From NCBI GenBank assembly GCA_965250285.1, contig OZ252299.1, positions 128,001-192,000 on the forward strand: DNA of 64,000 nucleotides, given 5' to 3'. Below are positions 17,799-26,079 of this stretch, piece after piece. Numbering within the stretch: the stretch's first letter is position 1; each line of letters starts with the position of its first letter. This stretch comes from Myxococcota bacterium. GTDB lineage: Bacteria; Myxococcota_A; UBA9160; UBA4427. Position numbers and translations under genes: made by a program. A model generated the notes under the pieces. The model made no database searches and was not told the DNA's origin. It was given only the letters and a program-made list of their open reading frames with translations.

Positions 17799-20369
17799 AT
17801 GCGCAGCCTTTCCCTCCCGGTTTCGAGGGAAAGACCCGAAGCGAAGCGGAACCTTCTCATCGACAACAGGCATCTCGTTCCCGGTTCTGGGAATCGACAT
17901 GCTTTCACTCGGGGCCGTCTCAAGTCGTCGATGGGCGTCGTCGAAACGCCCACCATGAGCCACGTACCCCCCTGTCGTGAGATGCCGCTCGAGCTGCCCG
18001 TGCTCCCCATGCGCGAGTTCGTGCTCTTCCCCTACATGGTCCTGCCGCTGTTCGTCGCGCGGGATCGCTCGGTCACCGCCATCGAGGATGCCCTCGCTGG
18101 TGATCGGCTGATCCTGCTCGTGACGCAGCGAGACCCGGGCCTCGAAGATCCGACGCCCGATCAGCTGTACGGCATCGGCACGGTCGCGATGGTGATGCGA
18201 TCGATGCGCCTCGCCGACGGCCGACTCAAGGTGCTCGTGCAGGGCCTGTCGCGCGCGCGCATCGACAGCGTGATCGAGGACGACGCCAGCACTTGGGTGC
18301 GGGTCGATCATCTCGAGACCGAAGAGCTCGATACGTGGAGCGTCGAGAGCGAAGCGCTGACCCGCACCGTGCGCTCGCGGGTCGAAGAGCTGCTGCCGCT
18401 CAAGAATCTGCCGCCCGAGGTGCTGTCGATCATCTCGAGCGCCGAGAAGCCTGGCCGCCTCGCCGATCTCGTCGCCTCGAATCTGCGTCTGCGCCTCGAA
18501 GAGGCCCAGGAGATTCTCGAGCTCTCCGATCCGATCGCCAAGCTCCGAAAGGTCGACGCCGTACTGCGGCGCGAGCTCGACGTGTCGAGCATGCAGGCCG
18601 AGATCCAGACCCAGGCGCGCGAGGAGCTGACCCGCGGCCAACGCGAGGTCTTTCTGCGCGAGCAGCTGCGCGCGATCCAGAGCGAGCTCGGCGAGATCGA
18701 CCCGCGCGGCGAAGAGGTCGACGAGTACCGCTACCGCATCGAAGAAGCCGACCTGCCGGGCGAGGCCTACGAAGAGGCCGTCAAGCAGCTGCGCCGACTC
18801 GAGCGGATGCATCCCGACGGTCCCGAGGCCCAGGTCGTGCGCAACTACCTCGACTGGGTGTGCGATCTGCCCTGGGATCGCTGCTCGCCCGACCGACTCG
18901 ACCTCGAGCACGCCCGTGAGATCCTCGACGCCGATCACGCCCACCTCGACGGTGTGAAGGAGCGCATGCTCGAGTTTCTCGGTGTGCGCAAGCTCCGCGA
19001 AGACAGCCGGGGGCCGATTCTCTGCCTCGCCGGTCCGCCGGGCGTCGGCAAGACGAGCCTCGGTCGTTCGATCGCCCGCGCCATGGGCCGCGAGTTCGTG
19101 CGCGTTTCGCTCGGTGGCGTGCGGGACGAGGCCGAGATTCGTGGCCATCGACGCACCTACGTCGGTGCTCTGCCCGGCCGCATCATCCAGGCGATGAAGC
19201 AGGCGGGGACGACGAACCCCGTGATCATGCTCGACGAGATCGACAAGCTCGGCGCAGACTTCCGCGGCGACCCGGCGGCGGCGCTCCTCGAGGTGCTCGA
19301 CCCCGAGCAGAACTCGAAGTTCAGCGATCACTTCATGAACCTGCCCTTCGACCTCTCGAAGGTGCTGTTCATCGCGACGGCCAACATGCTCGAGCCGATC
19401 CCCGGTCCCCTGCGCGATCGCATGGAGGTGATTCGACTGGCGGGCTACACGCCCGAGGAAAAGGTCGAGATCGCCGGACGCTTTCTGATCCCTCGGCAGA
19501 TCACCGAGCACGGGCTCGTGCCGACGCAGCTCGAATGGTCGAAGAACGCGATCGATCTGCTGACCGCGAAGTACACCCACGAGGCCGGCGTGCGAAACCT
19601 CGAGCGCCAGGTCGCGACGGTCTGCCGCAAGGTCGCCCGCAAGGCGGCCGAGGGGGACGACGCTCCGGTTCGCATCACGCAGCGCACCTTGCCCCGATAT
19701 CTGGGGCCGGCCCCCTTCGAAGACGAGCACGACGATCGCGAGCCCGAGATCGGGGTCGTGCAGGGACTCGCGTGGACCGAGGCCGGCGGCGACGTCCTCA
19801 CCCTCGAAGCCAATCTCGCTTCGGGCAAGGGGCTCACGCTGACGGGTCAGCTCGGGGACGTGATGAAGGAATCGGGTCAGACCGCTCACAGCTTCGTGCG
19901 CTCGCTGCTCCGCGAGGTCGATGCCGACGACTCGGTGCTGAGCCGCAACGAGACCCACGTACACGTGCCGGCCGGCGCCACGCCCAAGGACGGTCCCTCG
20001 GCCGGCGTCTCGATCGCCACGGCGATCGTGTCGGTGGCGACCGGCAGCGCGGTACGCCGCGACGTCGCGATGACGGGCGAGATCACGCTGCGAGGCCGCG
20101 TCCTCGCCGTGGGCGGTGTGCGCGAGAAGGCTCTGGCCGCGCTTCGTTCGGGCATTCGCACGATCATCCTGCCCCGGTCGTCGATGAAGGATGTCGAGGA
20201 GATCCCGAAGGATCTGCGCCGCAAGCTCGAGTTCATCCCGGTCGTGCACATGCGCGAGGTGCTCGAACACGCGCTCGTCGATCCGCTGCGCTGGCGGACC
20301 CACCCCGTGCGTTTGCCCCAGGGCGCGCAGTACGTGGCTGGCGCCGCGTCCGTCCGGGAACACGACTGA
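17799..20369 (+). CDS. lon: ATP-dependent Lon protease; true start probably between 17931 and 17982
   Basis: LON_N domain LPVLPMR; GPPGVGKT; RRTYVGALPG; PKDGPSAG catalytic Ser; GGVREK. Confidence 0.97.
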   Translation: MRSLSLPVSRERPEAKRNLLIDNRHLVPGSGNRHAFTRGRLKSSMGVVETPTMSHVPPCREMPLELPVLPMREFVLFPYMVLPLFVARDRSVTAIEDALAGDRLILLVTQRDPGLEDPTPDQLYGIGTVAMVMRSMRLADGRLKVLVQGLSRARIDSVIEDDASTWVRVDHLETEELDTWSVESEALTRTVRSRVEELLPLKNLPPEVLSIISSAEKPGRLADLVASNLRLRLEEAQEILELSDPIAKLRKVDAVLRRELDVSSMQAEIQTQAREELTRGQREVFLREQLRAIQSELGEIDPRGEEVDEYRYRIEEADLPGEAYEEAVKQLRRLERMHPDGPEAQVVRNYLDWVCDLPWDRCSPDRLDLEHAREILDADHAHLDGVKERMLEFLGVRKLREDSRGPILCLAGPPGVGKTSLGRSIARAMGREFVRVSLGGVRDEAEIRGHRRTYVGALPGRIIQAMKQAGTTNPVIMLDEIDKLGADFRGDPAAALLEVLDPEQNSKFSDHFMNLPFDLSKVLFIATANMLEPIPGPLRDRMEVIRLAGYTPEEKVEIAGRFLIPRQITEHGLVPTQLEWSKNAIDLLTAKYTHEAGVRNLERQVATVCRKVARKAAEGDDAPVRITQRTLPRYLGPAPFEDEHDDREPEIGVVQGLAWTEAGGDVLTLEANLASGKGLTLTGQLGDVMKESGQTAHSFVRSLLREVDADDSVLSRNETHVHVPAGATPKDGPSAGVSIATAIVSVATGSAVRRDVAMTGEITLRGRVLAVGGVREKALAALRSGIRTIILPRSSMKDVEEIPKDLRRKLEFIPVVHMREVLEHALVDPLRWRTHPVRLPQGAQYVAGAASVREHD
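17808..17833. terminator. Perfect 9-bp hairpin between the LpoA-like gene and lon
   Basis: CTTTCCCTC-N8-GAGGGAAAG. Confidence 0.4.
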
Positions 20370-20445
20370 TCCAGCCGCCGCCCTTGATCTGAAGATGCAC
20401 ATGCGAGCGACGGGGTGCGTCGGGCCGACGTATCATCCGTCTCCG

Positions 20446-21417
20446 ATGACCCGCCGCACTCCGCAGCGCACCCTCGAAGACCTCGGCGAGTTCGGTCTGA
20501 TCGATCGCATCGAGCGCCGCGCCCGCCGGCTCACCGGGCGTCGCGTGCGCCTCGGGATCGGCGACGACGCGGCGCTGCTGCGACCCGCGCCCGGCTTCGA
20601 ACTCACGGTCACGGCCGACACCGCCGTCGAGGGCGTGCACTTTCGGTTCGAGACCGCATCGGCCCGATCCATCGGTCGACGCGCGTTGGTGGCCAACCTC
20701 TCGGACCTCGCCGCCATGGGCGCGCGTCCGATCGGCTTCACGTGTGCGCTGCAGGCGCCTGCGTCGCTCCCGCTCGCGCGGGTCGACGCGCTCATCGACG
20801 GGCTGCTCAGCGAAGCCGAGATGCACGGCGCACCGCTCGTCGGGGGCAACGTGACGCGGGCGCGCGAGACGTCGCTCGCGATCACCGCGATCGGCGAGGT
20901 CGAGCAGGGCCGCGCCCTTCTGCGATCGGGCCTGCGCGCCGGCGATCGGCTCTACGTGACCGGGCGACTCGGCGCCGCCGCGCTCGCAGTCGCCCGAGCC
21001 GAGGCCCGAGGCGGTCGCATCCGGCACCTCGCCCGGCCCCGTCTCGAAGCGGGGCGGTCGCTGCTGCGATGGGGGCGCTGCTCGGCGTGCATCGACGTGT
21101 CCGACGGGCTCGCGGCCGACCTCGGCCACATGCTCGAGGCCAGCGGGGTCGGCGCCGACGTCGATGCGGCGCGGGTGCCCCGCGCTCGGGGCCTCGGGGC
21201 CGGCGCTCGGTCGCTGGGCCTCGACCCAGAGGCCCTCGCCTTCGCGGGGGGAGAAGACTACGAGCTCGTCTTCGGCCTGCGCCCCGGCCGCGGTCCGTGG
21301 CCCTCGGCGGCGGCGCTCGCACGTCGGCTGGGTACAGCCGCAGCAGAATTCGGCGTCGTCACTTCACGCCGCGGCCTGCGTGGTCTGCCCGATCTCGGCG
21401 GGCACACGCACTTCTGA
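20446..21417 (+). CDS. thiL: Thiamine-monophosphate kinase
   Basis: GEFGLI, GIGDDAA, EGVHF, NLSDLAAMGA, DVSDGL, GGEDYEL. Confidence 0.95.
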   Translation: MTRRTPQRTLEDLGEFGLIDRIERRARRLTGRRVRLGIGDDAALLRPAPGFELTVTADTAVEGVHFRFETASARSIGRRALVANLSDLAAMGARPIGFTCALQAPASLPLARVDALIDGLLSEAEMHGAPLVGGNVTRARETSLAITAIGEVEQGRALLRSGLRAGDRLYVTGRLGAAALAVARAEARGGRIRHLARPRLEAGRSLLRWGRCSACIDVSDGLAADLGHMLEASGVGADVDAARVPRARGLGAGARSLGLDPEALAFAGGEDYELVFGLRPGRGPWPSAAALARRLGTAAAEFGVVTSRRGLRGLPDLGGHTHF

Positions 21418-21501: not shown

Positions 21502-22806
21502 GTGCGCATCACGTTGACGACCAAATTCGTGGTGGGGTCGCTCGTGGTCGCGGGGGGCACCCTCGCGTTCCCAGAGCTGATCCGGTGGTTCGGACTCGCG
21601 TTCGACGCCTGGGGCACGTTCGCCGTCGCGCTCGGCGTGGGCGGTGGGATCGGCTTCTTTCTGTCGCAGATGCTTGGCTCGAAGTTCCAGGCCCTGCGCG
21701 ACCTGACCGACCAGGTGCGCAACGGCGACTTCTCGGCCTCCCAGGCCGAGGTGCCGCTCTCGCGCTTTGCCGACGAGACCGATGACCTCGCCCGCAGTCT
21801 GGGCGGGATGATCGGCCAGCTCCGTGACCTGGTCGAGAACGTGCAGGCGACCGCCGGTTCGGTGACGAGCTCGGCTCAAGGCCTCAATGCCTCGATCGAA
21901 GAGGTGCGCACGAGCGGCCAGGGCATCACCGATGCCATGGGGACCGTTGCTTCGAGCGTCGACAAGCAGCAGGGCATGATCGACGAAGCGGCGAATCAGA
22001 TGCAGGACATCAGCTCGGCCATCGACCAGAACGCAGAGCGCGCTCGCGAGGCATTCGGCTTCGCGGCCGAGGCGAACCAGAAGGCGGGCACCGGCGTCGA
22101 GGTCGCCCAGCTCGCCATCGAGAAGATGCGCAGCGTGTTCGAGCGTGTCGAGCTGACGGGCAACAAGGTCTTCCAGCTCGAAGCGAAGACCCGGCACGTT
22201 CACCAGATCACCGAGATGATCACGAGCGTCGCCCACCGCACGAACCTGCTCTCGCTGAATGCCTCGATCGAGGCGGCGCGCGCGGGCGAGGCGGGGCGCG
22301 GCTTCTCGGTCGTCGCCGACGAGATTCGCAAGCTCTCCGAGAGTGCGGGGCGGAGCGCCGAAGAGATCACGGCGCTCGTCAACGAGATCCAGGCCGATAC
22401 CGACGAGGTCGCCGACGAGATGCGTCAGTCGCGCATGGTGATCGGCGAGGGCCGTGAGGATGTCAACACGATCGCCTCGTCGCTCGAGCAGATCTCGATG
22501 GCCGTCGGCGAGGCCGCGGCGCGATCCGAAGAGATCTTCCACGGCGCCGACTCGCAGAGTCTCAACGCCGACCGCATGGCCGACAACCTCACCGAGATCG
22601 CGAACGTCTCGCGCGGCAACAGCGAAGGTCTCGAGACCGCGTCGCATACCGCGAGCGATCAGCTCTCGAGCATGGCGACGGTCGTCGAGCAGTCGCGCGC
22701 GCTCACGGTGCTCGCCGAAGAGCTGCAGACGACGCTCGAGCGCTTCCGCACGGCCCGCAACGCCGCCGACGCGATCCGCGACGAGTCGGGGGAGGGCGGG
22801 GCATGA
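21502..22806 (+). CDS. Methyl-accepting chemotaxis protein, DifA-like (2 TMs, almost no periplasmic domain, HAMP)
   Basis: [34 protein letters not shown] signalling tip; two closely spaced N-terminal TMs. Confidence 0.92.
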
Positions 22807-23294
22807 GCGAGCAGGCTTCGGCCGCACACAGCGACGAGCGCCTGCTCACCTTCGAGGTGGGTGCGACCATGTACGCCCTGCCCATCGAGGCGGTGCACGA
22901 GGTCGCCGAGGCGCAGCAGGTCAGCTGCGTGCCGGGTCTGCCTACGGCTCAGGCCGGCGTGATGAACTGGAGCGGCGAGGCGTTGCCCATCGTCGCGAAC
23001 CATCTGCTGTTGGCGATCGCCGAGCAAGCCGACGCCGCCGCCGAACAGCCGGAGAGCATCGTCGACGAGCACGTGCTCGTCGTCGCCGAGCGCGCCGACG
23101 CGCCGGCGCGCCTCGGCCTGCCGGTGGACAAGGTGGTGGGCCTGGTCGACGGGGGACGACGCGTCGCCCGGGGCCAGAGACTCGTTCAGGAAAGACGGCC
23201 CATCGAGGGACGGGTCGTTCACGTTCTGGATCCGCGCGAGCTCGTCGCGCGCGCGGGCCGGATCGTGGCCAAGGTGGAGGGCCTCGCCGCATAG
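22803..23294 (+). CDS. cheW: CheW-like coupling protein (DifC-like)
   Basis: [38 protein letters not shown]. Confidence 0.85.
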
Positions 23295-23324: not shown

Positions 23325-23696
23325 ATGAAGGCACGAGTTCTGATCGCAGACGACGCTTCGTTCATGCGACAGATGATCCGCGAGATCATCGAGCCCGAAG
23401 GCTATGAGGTCGTGGGCGAGGCCACGAACGGGATCGAGGCCGTCGAGCAGTTCGAGTCGCTGCACCCCGACATCGTGACGATGGACATCGTGATGCCGAA
23501 GCGCTCGGGCATCGACGCCGTCAAGGGCATCCTCGCCCAGCACCCCGACGCCAAGATCGTGATGTGCTCGGCGCTGGGCCAGGAGACGCTCGTGATGGAG
23601 GCGCTCCAGGCCGGGGCGCGCGACTTCATCGTGAAGCCCTTCAAGCCCGACAGCGTAATCTCGACGCTCTCGAAGATCCTCGAGAAGGAGAGCTGA
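23325..23696 (+). CDS. cheY: CheY-like response regulator (DifD-like)
   Basis: IADD, TMDIVMP, MCSA, FIVKPF. Confidence 0.93.
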   Translation: MKARVLIADDASFMRQMIREIIEPEGYEVVGEATNGIEAVEQFESLHPDIVTMDIVMPKRSGIDAVKGILAQHPDAKIVMCSALGQETLVMEALQAGARDFIVKPFKPDSVISTLSKILEKES

Positions 23697-23699
23697 GAC

Positions 23700-24134
23700 T
23701 TGGCCCTCGACATGGCCAAGTATCACAAGCTCTTCCTCGAAGAGGCCGTCGATCATCTCGGCGAGATCAGCCATGCGCTGCTCGAGCTCGAGAAGGACAT
23801 GGCCTCGACGGAGAGCATCGACGTCATCTTTCGGATGGCGCACAGCATCAAGTCGATGGCCGCTTCGCTCGGCTTCGACTCGGTGACCGAGCTGTCGCAT
23901 CGCCTCGAAGACCGCATGCAGACCGTACGTGCCCGCGCTCGGGTCGCGGACGACGATGAGCTGTCGTTGCTCTTCAAGGGTCTCGAAGGTCTCGAAGCCA
24001 TGGTGGGCGCCATCCGCGACACGGGTGAAGCACCGCCGGGTGATCCGGCCCTGATGGAGGCGCTCTCGCAGCCTGCCGACGCAGCCGATGGCGGCGGCGC
24101 AGGAGACGCCCCCCCAAAAAAAGTCCTGAGCTGA
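23700..24134 (+). CDS. cheA: CheA P1 (Hpt) domain, 0-frame product ending just after the slippery site
   Basis: FLEEA..., IFRMAHSIKSMAASLG, SHRLED; ends PPKKVLS-stop. Confidence 0.85.
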   Translation: MALDMAKYHKLFLEEAVDHLGEISHALLELEKDMASTESIDVIFRMAHSIKSMAASLGFDSVTELSHRLEDRMQTVRARARVADDDELSLLFKGLEGLEAMVGAIRDTGEAPPGDPALMEALSQPADAADGGGAGDAPPKKVLS

Positions 24135-24165
24135 CCGGGCCCGAGGCGTCGCACCCGGTCGAAGC
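24101..24165 (+). promoter_or_regulatory. Candidate -1 frameshift cassette (SD-like, slippery C7A7, hairpin)
   Basis: AGGAG 24101-24105; in-phase C_CCA_AAA and A_AAA_AAA; GACCGGG (24133-24139) pairs with CCCGGTC (24154-24160). Confidence 0.6.
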
Positions 24166-25516
24166 AACCGAACCGACGCCCACGGACGAAGACCCGGCCG
24201 TCGCCGCGATTCGTGCAGCGATGGAGGCCGAATTGGCCGGCGCCGACGCGGGGGCGACGCCCGACGCGCCGCCCACCGAGCACGCCTCTGCGGCGCCGAC
24301 CGAAGCGCCGAGCGCTGCCGCGTCCGATGCGGCCGCGAGCGCTCAGCCGCCTCAGCCCACTGCTTCGCTCTCGCCCACCATTCGCGTGCGCACCGAGACC
24401 CTCGATCGGTTCCTCGGCAGCGTGGGGGAGGTGATCCTCAGCTCGAATCAGCTGCGCACCGCGGCCGGTCAGACCGAGGGCAGTGCACAGCTCTCGACGG
24501 GCCTCGACCAGGTCGAGCGCCGCGTGAGCGAGCTGCAGCGCCGCGTGCTCGATCTGCGCACGACACCGCTCACGCGCGTGACCGACCAGCTGCCGCGTAC
24601 GGCGCGCCAGATCGCAGAGCGGCTCGGCAAGAAGGTCGAGGTCGAGATCATCGGCGCCGAGCTCGAGCTCGATCGCTCGATCCTCGACCGTCTGAGCGAA
24701 CCGCTGCTTCACATGGTGCGCAACGCCGTCGACCACGGCATCGAGTCGATCGATACGCGCGTCGGTGCCGGCAAACCCGACACGGGTCGCATCACGATCG
24801 AGGCGCGCCGTCAGAAGGACGACATCCTCATCGACGTGAGCGACGACGGTGGCGGGATCGATCTCGAGGGCGTCAAGCGCCGCGCGATCGATGCCGGCCA
24901 CCTGCACCCCGACCTCGCCGACGACCTGCCAGCCGAAGAGATCGTGCCGCTCATCTTCCGGCCGGGGCTCTCGACGGCGGTCGAGGTCTCGGACGTGTCG
25001 GGCCGCGGCGTCGGCATGGACGCCGTGAAGGCGACGATCGAATCCCTCGGCGGCTCGGTCGAGCTGCGCACGCGCCTGGGTGTGGGCACCACGACGACGC
25101 TTCAGGTGCCGATCACCGCCGCGGTGCAGCGCGTGCTCGTCGTCGGCGTGGCCGACGAACGCGTCGCGCTGCCGATCAGCCGCGTCGAGCGCATTCTCGA
25201 GGTCGAGCCGGGCGCGATCGAAGACGCCGGCGGCGAGTGCTTCGTGCTCATCGACGACGACCCCGTGCTGGTGCTCGATCTCGGTGCGCGTCTGTCGATC
25301 GATTCGGGCCTCGAGAGCGACATCGCCATCCCGCTCGTGATGACGACGCTGCGGGGCGAGCGCGTCGCGCTCAAGGTCGACCGCTTCGTCGGCCAGCAGG
25401 AGATCTACGTGAAGTCGGTCCCCGGGTTGCTCTCGGGGCTTCGACAGCTGGCGGGGCTCACCCTGCTCGACGACGGCAGGCCGGTCTTCTTGATCGACCT
25501 GAACCACCTGGTCTGA
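24119..25516 (+). CDS. cheA: CheA linker, dimerisation, HATPase and CheW-like domains (DifE-like) in the -1 frame; open from the A7 run, first ATG at 24221
   Basis: TIRVRTETLDRF, HMVRNAVDHGIE, SDDGGG, FRPGLST, SGRGVGMD; no stop between 24119 and 24221 in this frame. Confidence 0.9.
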   Translation, partial: KSPELTGPEASHPVEATEPTPTDEDPAVAAIRAAMEAELAGADAGATPDAPPTEHASAAPTEAPSAAASDAAASAQPPQPTASLSPTIRVRTETLDRFLGSVGEVILSSNQLRTAAGQTEGSAQLSTGLDQVERRVSELQRRVLDLRTTPLTRVTDQLPRTARQIAERLGKKVEVEIIGAELELDRSILDRLSEPLLHMVRNAVDHGIESIDTRVGAGKPDTGRITIEARRQKDDILIDVSDDGGGIDLEGVKRRAIDAGHLHPDLADDLPAEEIVPLIFRPGLSTAVEVSDVSGRGVGMDAVKATIESLGGSVELRTRLGVGTTTTLQVPITAAVQRVLVVGVADERVALPISRVERILEVEPGAIEDAGGECFVLIDDDPVLVLDLGARLSIDSGLESDIAIPLVMTTLRGERVALKVDRFVGQQEIYVKSVPGLLSGLRQLAGLTLLDDGRPVFLIDLNHLV

Positions 25517-25527
25517 GGTTCGAGGCG

Positions 25528-26079
25528 ATGGACGCAGCCGAACTCGACAGAATGCAGGAGCTGACCAGCATCGGCGCCGGTCACGCCGCGAGCGCGTTTG
25601 CGCAGCTCACCGGTCAGCCCTTCTGGATGGGGTTGCCGCGCGTCGCCAAGGGTGAGGAAGGCGCCCTCGCGCCGCAGCTCGTCCTGGCGCGGCGCTGGTC
25701 GACGGGCGTGTTCTTCGAGCTCGACGGATGCCTCGACGCGCTGCTGGGGCTGCTCTTTCACGAGGACGCCAGCGAGGCGGTCGTGCGCCGCATCGTCGGC
25801 GTCGAAGAGGGCGAGATCGATCCGACCTGGATCGAGTCGGCGTTGATGGAGGTCGGGAACATCCTGGCCAGCCACGTCTCGAACGCGATCGCCGATACGC
25901 TCGGCGAGCGGCTGCTGCCCTCGATCCCGATCCTCGCGATGACCGAAGCGGAACGCGCACTGGCCCACGCCCTGCTCGACGGGCCGGGCATCGACACGTT
26001 GCGCGTCGAGTGCGAGCTGCGCGGCGGCGACGGCCAGCTGGGTGGGCTCGTCGTGCTCGTCCCGCGACAGGCCTGGTAG
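25528..26079 (+). CDS. cheC: CheC-family phosphatase (DifG-like)
   Basis: DRMQELTSIGAGHAA and SALMEVGNILA (S/D-x3-E-x2-N), PSIP. Confidence 0.85.
   Translation: MDAAELDRMQELTSIGAGHAASAFAQLTGQPFWMGLPRVAKGEEGALAPQLVLARRWSTGVFFELDGCLDALLGLLFHEDASEAVVRRIVGVEEGEIDPTWIESALMEVGNILASHVSNAIADTLGERLLPSIPILAMTEAERALAHALLDGPGIDTLRVECELRGGDGQLGGLVVLVPRQAW

Follow-up and report, generated by a model that had tools for sequence, protein, structure and literature searches.

RESULTS

Gene content of the locus

The window analyzed here is a stretch of 64,000 nucleotides (G000:C1:128001-192000) from a genome of 6.25 Mb with a GC content of 68.6%. It holds a five-gene cluster, MCP-cheW-cheY-cheA-cheC, which is intact save that cheA lies in two reading frames. 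The genes of this cluster and the features found or predicted within cheA are as follows.

21502..22806, + strand: MCP, DifA-like, with two N-terminal hydrophobic segments, a short loop, HAMP, and an MCP signalling domain
22803..23294, + strand: cheW, DifC-like, overlapping the MCP stop
23325..23696, + strand: cheY, DifD-like, a single receiver domain
23700..24134, + strand: cheA zero frame, P1/Hpt (PF01627, E 4.7e-14) and a short linker, predicted free-P1 product of 144 aa
24101..24105, + strand: SD-like AGGAG, predicted 5' stimulator (from family enrichment), 10 nt before the heptamer
24116..24122, + strand: A7, an in-phase A_AAA_AAA slippery heptamer
24119..25516, + strand: cheA -1 frame, with linker, P3 dimerisation, P4 kinase, and P5 CheW-like domains
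24127..24129, + strand: TGA closing the third (+1/-2) frame
24130..24165, + strand: predicted 3' stem-loop, core arms 24133-24139 and 24154-24160
24132..24134, + strand: TGA closing the P1 frame, three codons past the heptamer
25528..26079, + strand: cheC, DifG-like phosphatase

The make-up of the cluster was Dif-like: an MCP with two segments and a loop of 3 to 10 aa was found together with CheW, CheY, CheA, and CheC, a combination shared with Dif of Myxococcus xanthus and the Dif-like clusters of Geobacter, which likewise have a two-segment small-loop MCP (PMC4671073, PMC2577667). The likeness to Dif rests on this make-up, and no CheD, CheR, or difB was found between the five genes. The order MCP-CheW-CheY-CheC was present in 44 of the 51 loci scanned, the remainder being short or outgroup loci. 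The best NCBIfam matches of CheA, CheY, and CheC were halo-archaeal/Thermotoga-type entries, all below cut-off, and there was no named DifA among the 120 homologues listed. The genome contained PilT-family genes, had only two Hpt matches, and gave no match to flagellin. The gene directly 5' of the MCP (window 20191-21417; L098-L144), which we take to be thiL-like from its sequence, was present in 40 of the 51 loci scanned. A tRNA-SeC was called elsewhere in the genome, at G000:C1:2050420-2050518.

Frame break within cheA

The initial annotation of this DNA had described an Hpt frame ending in ...PPKKVLS and a -1 frame open through the kinase domains, with a fusion of about 605 aa, and ORF and domain searches confirmed this description. 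The P1/Hpt ORF, whose phospho-acceptor His is residue 49, ended in ...PPKKVLS-stop; the -1 frame was open between a stop at 24041 and 25516 and carried H-kinase_dim, HATPase_c, and CheW domains, and the predicted fusion of P1 to the -1 frame was 605 aa. No P2 domain was detected in the window CheA by the domain search. A C7 run (24109-24115) lies directly 5' of the A7 run, and both of the heptamers named in the annotation, C_CCA_AAA and A_AAA_AAA, were in phase. The tandem AAA Lys codons had been called anomalous and proved to be so: in 2486 long ORFs crudely collected from the genome, AAA made up 5.8% of Lys codons, and AAA-AAA accounted for 2 of 1114 Lys-Lys pairs. Runs of at least 7 A occurred only 24 times in the 6.25 Mb, both strands counted, and the genome's second cheA had no A-run. 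The AGGAG was located, as had been claimed, 10 nt upstream of the A-run, and its pairing with the genome's own anti-SD was calculated at -7.4 kcal/mol. The proposed 3' hairpin held up in part. Its arms were located and were kept in a relative (G001) in which the loop varies, and hairpins appeared to be a family-level feature of short-run loci, but the window's own hairpin was marginal and depended on the folding window (z of -2.14 over 46 nt versus -0.53 over 78 nt).

Homopolymers are error-prone, and this genome is a single contig whose sequencing platform is unstated, both of which would be expected to favor an assembly error or a pseudogene as the explanation for the break. Read accuracy over the C7A7 tract had been raised as a check, and contigs of three runs of one study (X1, X2, and X3) matched the window exactly, covering the A7 run without differences, although X1 may itself be the source of this DNA. 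Three contigs from two other studies (X4 and X6; less than 95% alike) shared the frame break but had A8, a C>A change having lengthened the run; their flanks and C-run varied, and no indel or substitution fell at 24116-24161 among the differences listed, beyond which seven more exist. The break is genuine and not an assembly error, because contigs from several studies keep it. In addition, the frame offset is common to 114 loci, as described below, both halves of cheA are intact, and the His was kept in 148 of the 148 P1 domains of the family (144 by pattern and 4 by eye). An assembly error or pseudogene is thus extremely improbable.

The P1-P3 junction across the family

The surveyed relatives, uncultured myxobacteria, belong to a class that we take to be UBA9160 (Myxococcota_A), in part from 10.64898/2026.07.10.737566. 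A P1 match was found in 192 of the 225 genomes of this class, and among the 150 P1 matches listed, 12 were in an open frame of at least 500 aa. The junction was read in 144 distinct cheA loci, including that of the window; this sample was non-random, with long-frame genes deliberately over-sampled. Ten loci in which a domain fell outside the fetched stretch were left out of the count, and L219 (G366:C31:5800-8600) was left out as a duplicate of G052. The L219 junction was identical to that of G052, which is from a different family, and may come from a mis-binned contig.

The initial annotation had held that an alignment of orthologs should reveal a conserved frame break and A-run, and that continuous relatives lacking the run would speak against recoding. 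Most relatives kept both features: 114 of the 144 loci were split in the -1 frame, with runs of A7 (47 loci), A8 (13), A9 (21), A10 (32), and A11 (1), and only 20 were continuous without a run. A further 6 loci were continuous yet kept A8 to A10, and 4 were split +1/-2. An in-phase A_AAA_AAA was present in all 114 loci split -1, so that the minimum run equals the heptamer, and none of the 118 split loci was without a run of at least 7 A. The -1 direction was shared by 114 of these 118; the 4 loci that need +1/-2 mean that direction is incompletely conserved, and the 20 loci without the site mean that it is dispensable. The 230 kb of DNA flanking the loci contained one other run of A7 or longer. 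As had been proposed for the window, the break sat in the linker between domains, with the run past P1 and ahead of P3 in all 124 loci measured. It lay 17 to 182 nt past P1 and 31 to 350 nt ahead of P3, the frame offset being held despite this variation in linker length. The split was present in both orders of the class, between which the kinases are about 45% identical and silent sites are saturated.

Stop codons were clustered downstream of the run. The P1-frame stop was no more than 18 nt away in 77 of the 114 loci, compared to a background of 8 to 13%, and a third-frame stop was no more than 12 nt away in 34 of the 114, compared to 1 to 3%. C_CCA_AAA, which the initial annotation had made part of the cassette, was found in only 15 of 50 A7 loci, and the C-run varied among contigs. 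The C-run and C_CCA_AAA were rejected as a conserved signal and appear incidental, the conserved element being A_AAA_AAA.

In two loci, G011 and G225, one additional A puts P1 and the kinase in a single frame, and these sequences show that the fused form corresponds to a normal CheA. In trees built by a quick method and by FastTree, the last of which left out 4 short rows, several run-less genes were nested among split ones (quick trees), which suggests that the run was repeatedly lost. Among the cheA genes searched outside the class, no such site was found. In family f38, 10 of the 11 strong P1 matches had open frames of at least 706 aa. Outgroup cheA genes had long inserts in the linker, and one of them, that of G160 (L223, G160:C2:114712-117400), had several frame changes in its linker insert and no A-run; these are likely errors or decay. 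No conserved degradation tag was seen on free P1, the P1 tail being variable among relatives. The start candidate with the best SD was TTG or GTG in 86 of 111 split cheA loci, just past the cheY stop (window 23700-23702).

SD-like sites, 3' hairpins, and run length

An SD-like stimulator is expected 6 to 17 nt upstream of a shift site (PMC4066793), and the AGGAG of the window, with its spacing of 10 nt, falls within this interval. Across the family, spacing ranged from 4 to 19 nt, and most of the strong sites were 7 to 11 nt from the run. The SD signal was matched in 0 of 200 codon shuffles, and in 1 of 200 when one locus per genus was used (58 loci). The 60 A7-8 loci had a mean SD of -7.0 kcal/mol, compared to -3.4 further upstream, and 43 of the 60 had an SD motif compared to 15 of the 60 control stretches. 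For the 54 A9-11 loci, the values were -3.1 kcal/mol against a control of -2.6, with the motif in 9 of the 54 and in 8 of the 54 control stretches, and no excess was found.

Excess folding was confined to windows whose start lay +2 to +8 past the heptamer (z of about -1.2 versus about -0.2), with hairpin z values of -1.6 in A7-8 loci and -0.6 in A9-11 loci (control, -0.5). The SD and hairpin claimed as cassette parts appeared as family-level features of short-run loci. Stems started 5 to 37 nt past the motif across loci, against the 4 to 10 nt looked for, and the hairpin of the window was, as noted, marginal. Compensatory changes, which had been predicted for the hairpin, were seen as covariation in genus g14, in which a 9-bp stem was 96.8% paired over 14 loci with 12 double-change cells, was matched by 0 of 500 shuffles, and beat all slid controls; these double changes sit in only 2 of the 9 pairs, however, and the loci are kin and non-independent. 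Third-frame stops were found in 29 of 54 long-run loci versus 5 of 60 short-run loci.

Phylogenetic control used 8 independent pairs of short- and long-run loci. The SD went with the short run 6.3 times and opposed it 0.1 times (8 pairs; median p of 0.03), with a p of 0.03 when another window was used and 0.06 with a strict motif. The trade-offs of the hairpin and of the third-frame stop with run length failed the independent-pairs test, with median p values of 0.63 and 0.38, respectively, and were rejected. The short type of cassette would most likely work by SD-assisted -1 ribosomal frameshifting, and since the window locus is of the short-run type, this is also the most likely route there. 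The long type (A9-11) is probably self-sufficient in slipping and partly transcriptional. The initial annotation had left the choice between recoding and transcriptional slippage open; the ribosomal route is the one favored at the window, whereas in long-run lineages transcriptional slippage appears to be the better match.

Natural variants in genera g47 and g48

Four continuous cheA genes of genus g47 (L061, L153, L154, and L156, from G255, G393, G394, and G398) keep A10 in three phases. They have a -1-frame stop 4 to 14 nt past the A10 and are 57 to 68% identical at 4-fold sites; an ordinary split gene, that of G396, fell within this group, though the support for its placement was modest. 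In the four continuous genes, slipping would shorten the product rather than extend it, a reversal of polarity read from these sequences, and the run would therefore be kept even where the full-length kinase needs none. The A10 in a continuous gene resembles the polarity reversal of dnaX.

The 4 loci with a +1/-2 kinase frame are L068, L162, L163, and L168 (G277, G378, G379, and G402). Those of genus g48 (G277, G378, and G379) have A7. Their SDs were the strongest of all (-10 to -11.8), and their hairpins, also very strong with z values of -2.6 to -4.5, start about 3 nt past the AAG codon. One speculative reading is a tandem -2 ribosomal slip, which would fit the A7 run of g48 exactly, and loss of one A in transcription also fits. 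Short spacers favor -2 in a eukaryotic system (PMC3458567).

DISCUSSION

Taken together, these results make it fairly likely that A7, in the linker between P1 and P3, is a conserved site of recoding through which one cheA gene would give both free P1 and full-length CheA. A fraction of ribosomes would slip back one base at A7; those that do not slip would make free P1, and those that do would make full-length CheA. We infer that two tRNA-Lys(UUU) re-pair on A_AAA_AAA, with the 16S tail holding the SD while the hairpin stalls the ribosome. On A_AAA_AAA, shifting reached 10% when a chelatase cassette was tested (PMC3711429), and in IS elements this heptamer is among the two most frequent (PMC4066793). 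The A9-A11 lineages likely moved in part to RNA polymerase slippage and lost the SD.

The same two products could instead be made here by RNA polymerase slippage that adds an A, as for Thermus dnaX, which we regard as unlikely at this locus. It would suit the 54 of 114 loci that are A9-A11 without an SD excess (-3.1 versus -2.6), 29 of these 54 having a third-frame stop too, and the window itself has stops in both non-coding frames, which mark Thermus dnaX (PMC5009743). The 4 loci that need the opposite direction are also of interest here, as incompletely conserved direction is a criterion that points to transcriptional slippage (PMC3711429). Slippage runs are, however, given as A(n), n>7, in the same source, and the window has only A7, with A8 or more in 67 of 114 relatives; the ribosomal phase is kept in every one of the 47 A7 loci split -1, and it is the short runs that carry the SD. 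By either mechanism, recoding might only lower the dose of CheA relative to MCP and CheW, with free P1 a degraded by-product. This is a real but doubtful possibility. The early stops and the A10 kept in g47 fit it equally well, the P1 tail is variable, and the flexible linker may be the sole place that tolerates Lys-Lys. On the other hand, the start SD was -6.7 in split genes versus -4.8 in continuous run-less genes (p of 0.01, kinship uncorrected), which amounts to strong initiation followed by truncation, and a weaker start would lower the dose more cheaply. The site also always leaves P1 whole.

That the two halves are separately translated genes, forming a split kinase of P1 and P3-P5 like Rhodobacter CheA3/CheA4, is very improbable. 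Split kinases do work in trans (PMC3591291), and in this genome a TTG in frame at 24233 is preceded by a strong SD (-9.7 kcal/mol), a start not seen in G001. Across the family, though, an in-frame start with an SD between the run and P3+8 codons was present in only 14 of the 114 loci, P3-border starts were without an SD in 60 of 62 loci, and 64 of the 114 split loci had no ATG, GTG, or TTG between the run and P3; the kinase half thus has no conserved start of its own, and the A-run and fixed frame offset would be left unexplained. Independent translation from ATG 24221, named in the initial annotation as an outcome that would overturn recoding, fared no better: this ATG has no SD, and starts are not conserved. 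A minor P3-P5 product from TTG 24233 may be made in this genome, one of the 14. Less probable still is phase variation, in which replication slippage at a DNA tract would turn cheA on and off. G011 and G225, in frame through one extra A relative to the family pattern, are what such a tract might produce, but 114 of the 124 run-bearing loci would then be 'off' in the same frame, and the SD, hairpin, and phase would have no explanation. There were also no length variants among the contigs compared, though rare variants are lost from contigs.

The known cases of conserved recoding in genes of bacterial chromosomes form a short list (prfB, dnaX, copA, cso2, and chelatases). The class of mechanism is already known, and its proposed use in cheA is new in the literature searched. 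That literature, which lay mostly outside subscription journals, contained no programmed recoding of cheA to free P1 and full CheA and no recoding in any histidine kinase. 'cheA' was absent from the main text of PMC3711429, from two of its supplements, and from the first 300,000 characters of PMC5009743.

The recoding of cheA proposed here resembles that of dnaX tau/gamma, in which one gene gives a short N-terminal and a long product from an A-rich site (PMC5009743, PMC3711429). The dnaX orthologues use both ribosomal (E. coli, -1) and slippage (Thermus thermophilus) routes, with reversed polarity in Chlorobi, and cheA appears alike; the pair of short and long cassettes parallels E. coli versus Thermus dnaX (PMC5009743). 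The two differ in that cheA encodes a sensor kinase, uses A_AAA_AAA rather than the A_AAA_AAG of dnaX, and usually needs a slip for its long product, one cheA lineage needing +1/-2. The Mg/Co chelatase cluster shares a -1 transition at A7-A11 runs with fused orthologues (PMC3711429), and a 3' structure that is maintained although its sequence is not (PMC5009743). Chelatases are, however, enzyme subunits that were reporter-tested, whereas cheA is a signalling kinase known here from sequence. Recoding of E. coli copA also releases a stand-alone N-terminal domain (PMC5009743), but the copA shift truncates, while the cheA shift usually would extend, and a C_CCA_AAA-like heptamer is not conserved in cheA. 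In the sections covered of the papers on M. xanthus Dif and the Geobacter clusters, recoding is not mentioned (PMC4671073, PMC2577667), in contrast to the split cheA here. The one cheA entry that the literature search did return is a frameshift-prone site with reporter activity, described as an FSscan hotspot in E. coli (PMC2790909). That hotspot is a predicted +1 site, is not an A-run, and lies in a continuous gene, and the sections of the paper covered show no conservation or defined functional product (PMC2790909).

Free P1, with its His kept, could receive phosphate in trans from the array-bound kinase and serve CheY and orphan receivers as a diffusible buffer or shuttle of phosphate in this P2-less, non-flagellar, Dif-like pathway. 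We lean slightly toward this role because CheY of the Dif pathway is a phosphate sink, the output receiver being encoded elsewhere (PMC2577667, PMC4671073), and because in Rhodobacter sphaeroides CheA3/CheA4 the P4 of one chain phosphorylates in trans a P1 carried on another (PMC3591291). Against this, the binding of CheY by E. coli P1 in isolation is weak, at about 900 uM (PMC5705603). CheA3 and CheA4 are products of two genes, both with P5, whereas one gene here would give a P5-less free P1 beside the intact kinase.

We tentatively propose, at a confidence below that given to recoding at the window, that cheA recoding is class-wide and sets the ratio of free P1 to kinase, with lineages having swapped between the SD-driven -1 shift, A9-A11 slippage, reversed polarity, and a possible -2 ribosomal shift in g48. 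The family comprises more than 100 natural cassettes in four configurations in which ribosomal and transcriptional slippage can be compared, and such cheA genes will be annotated as broken or as two genes. If the proposal is true, free P1 would be made at a fixed ratio to its own kinase, the role of P1 in trans in living cells would be testable through a one-base lock, and recoding would add a layer at which two-component signalling can be tuned.
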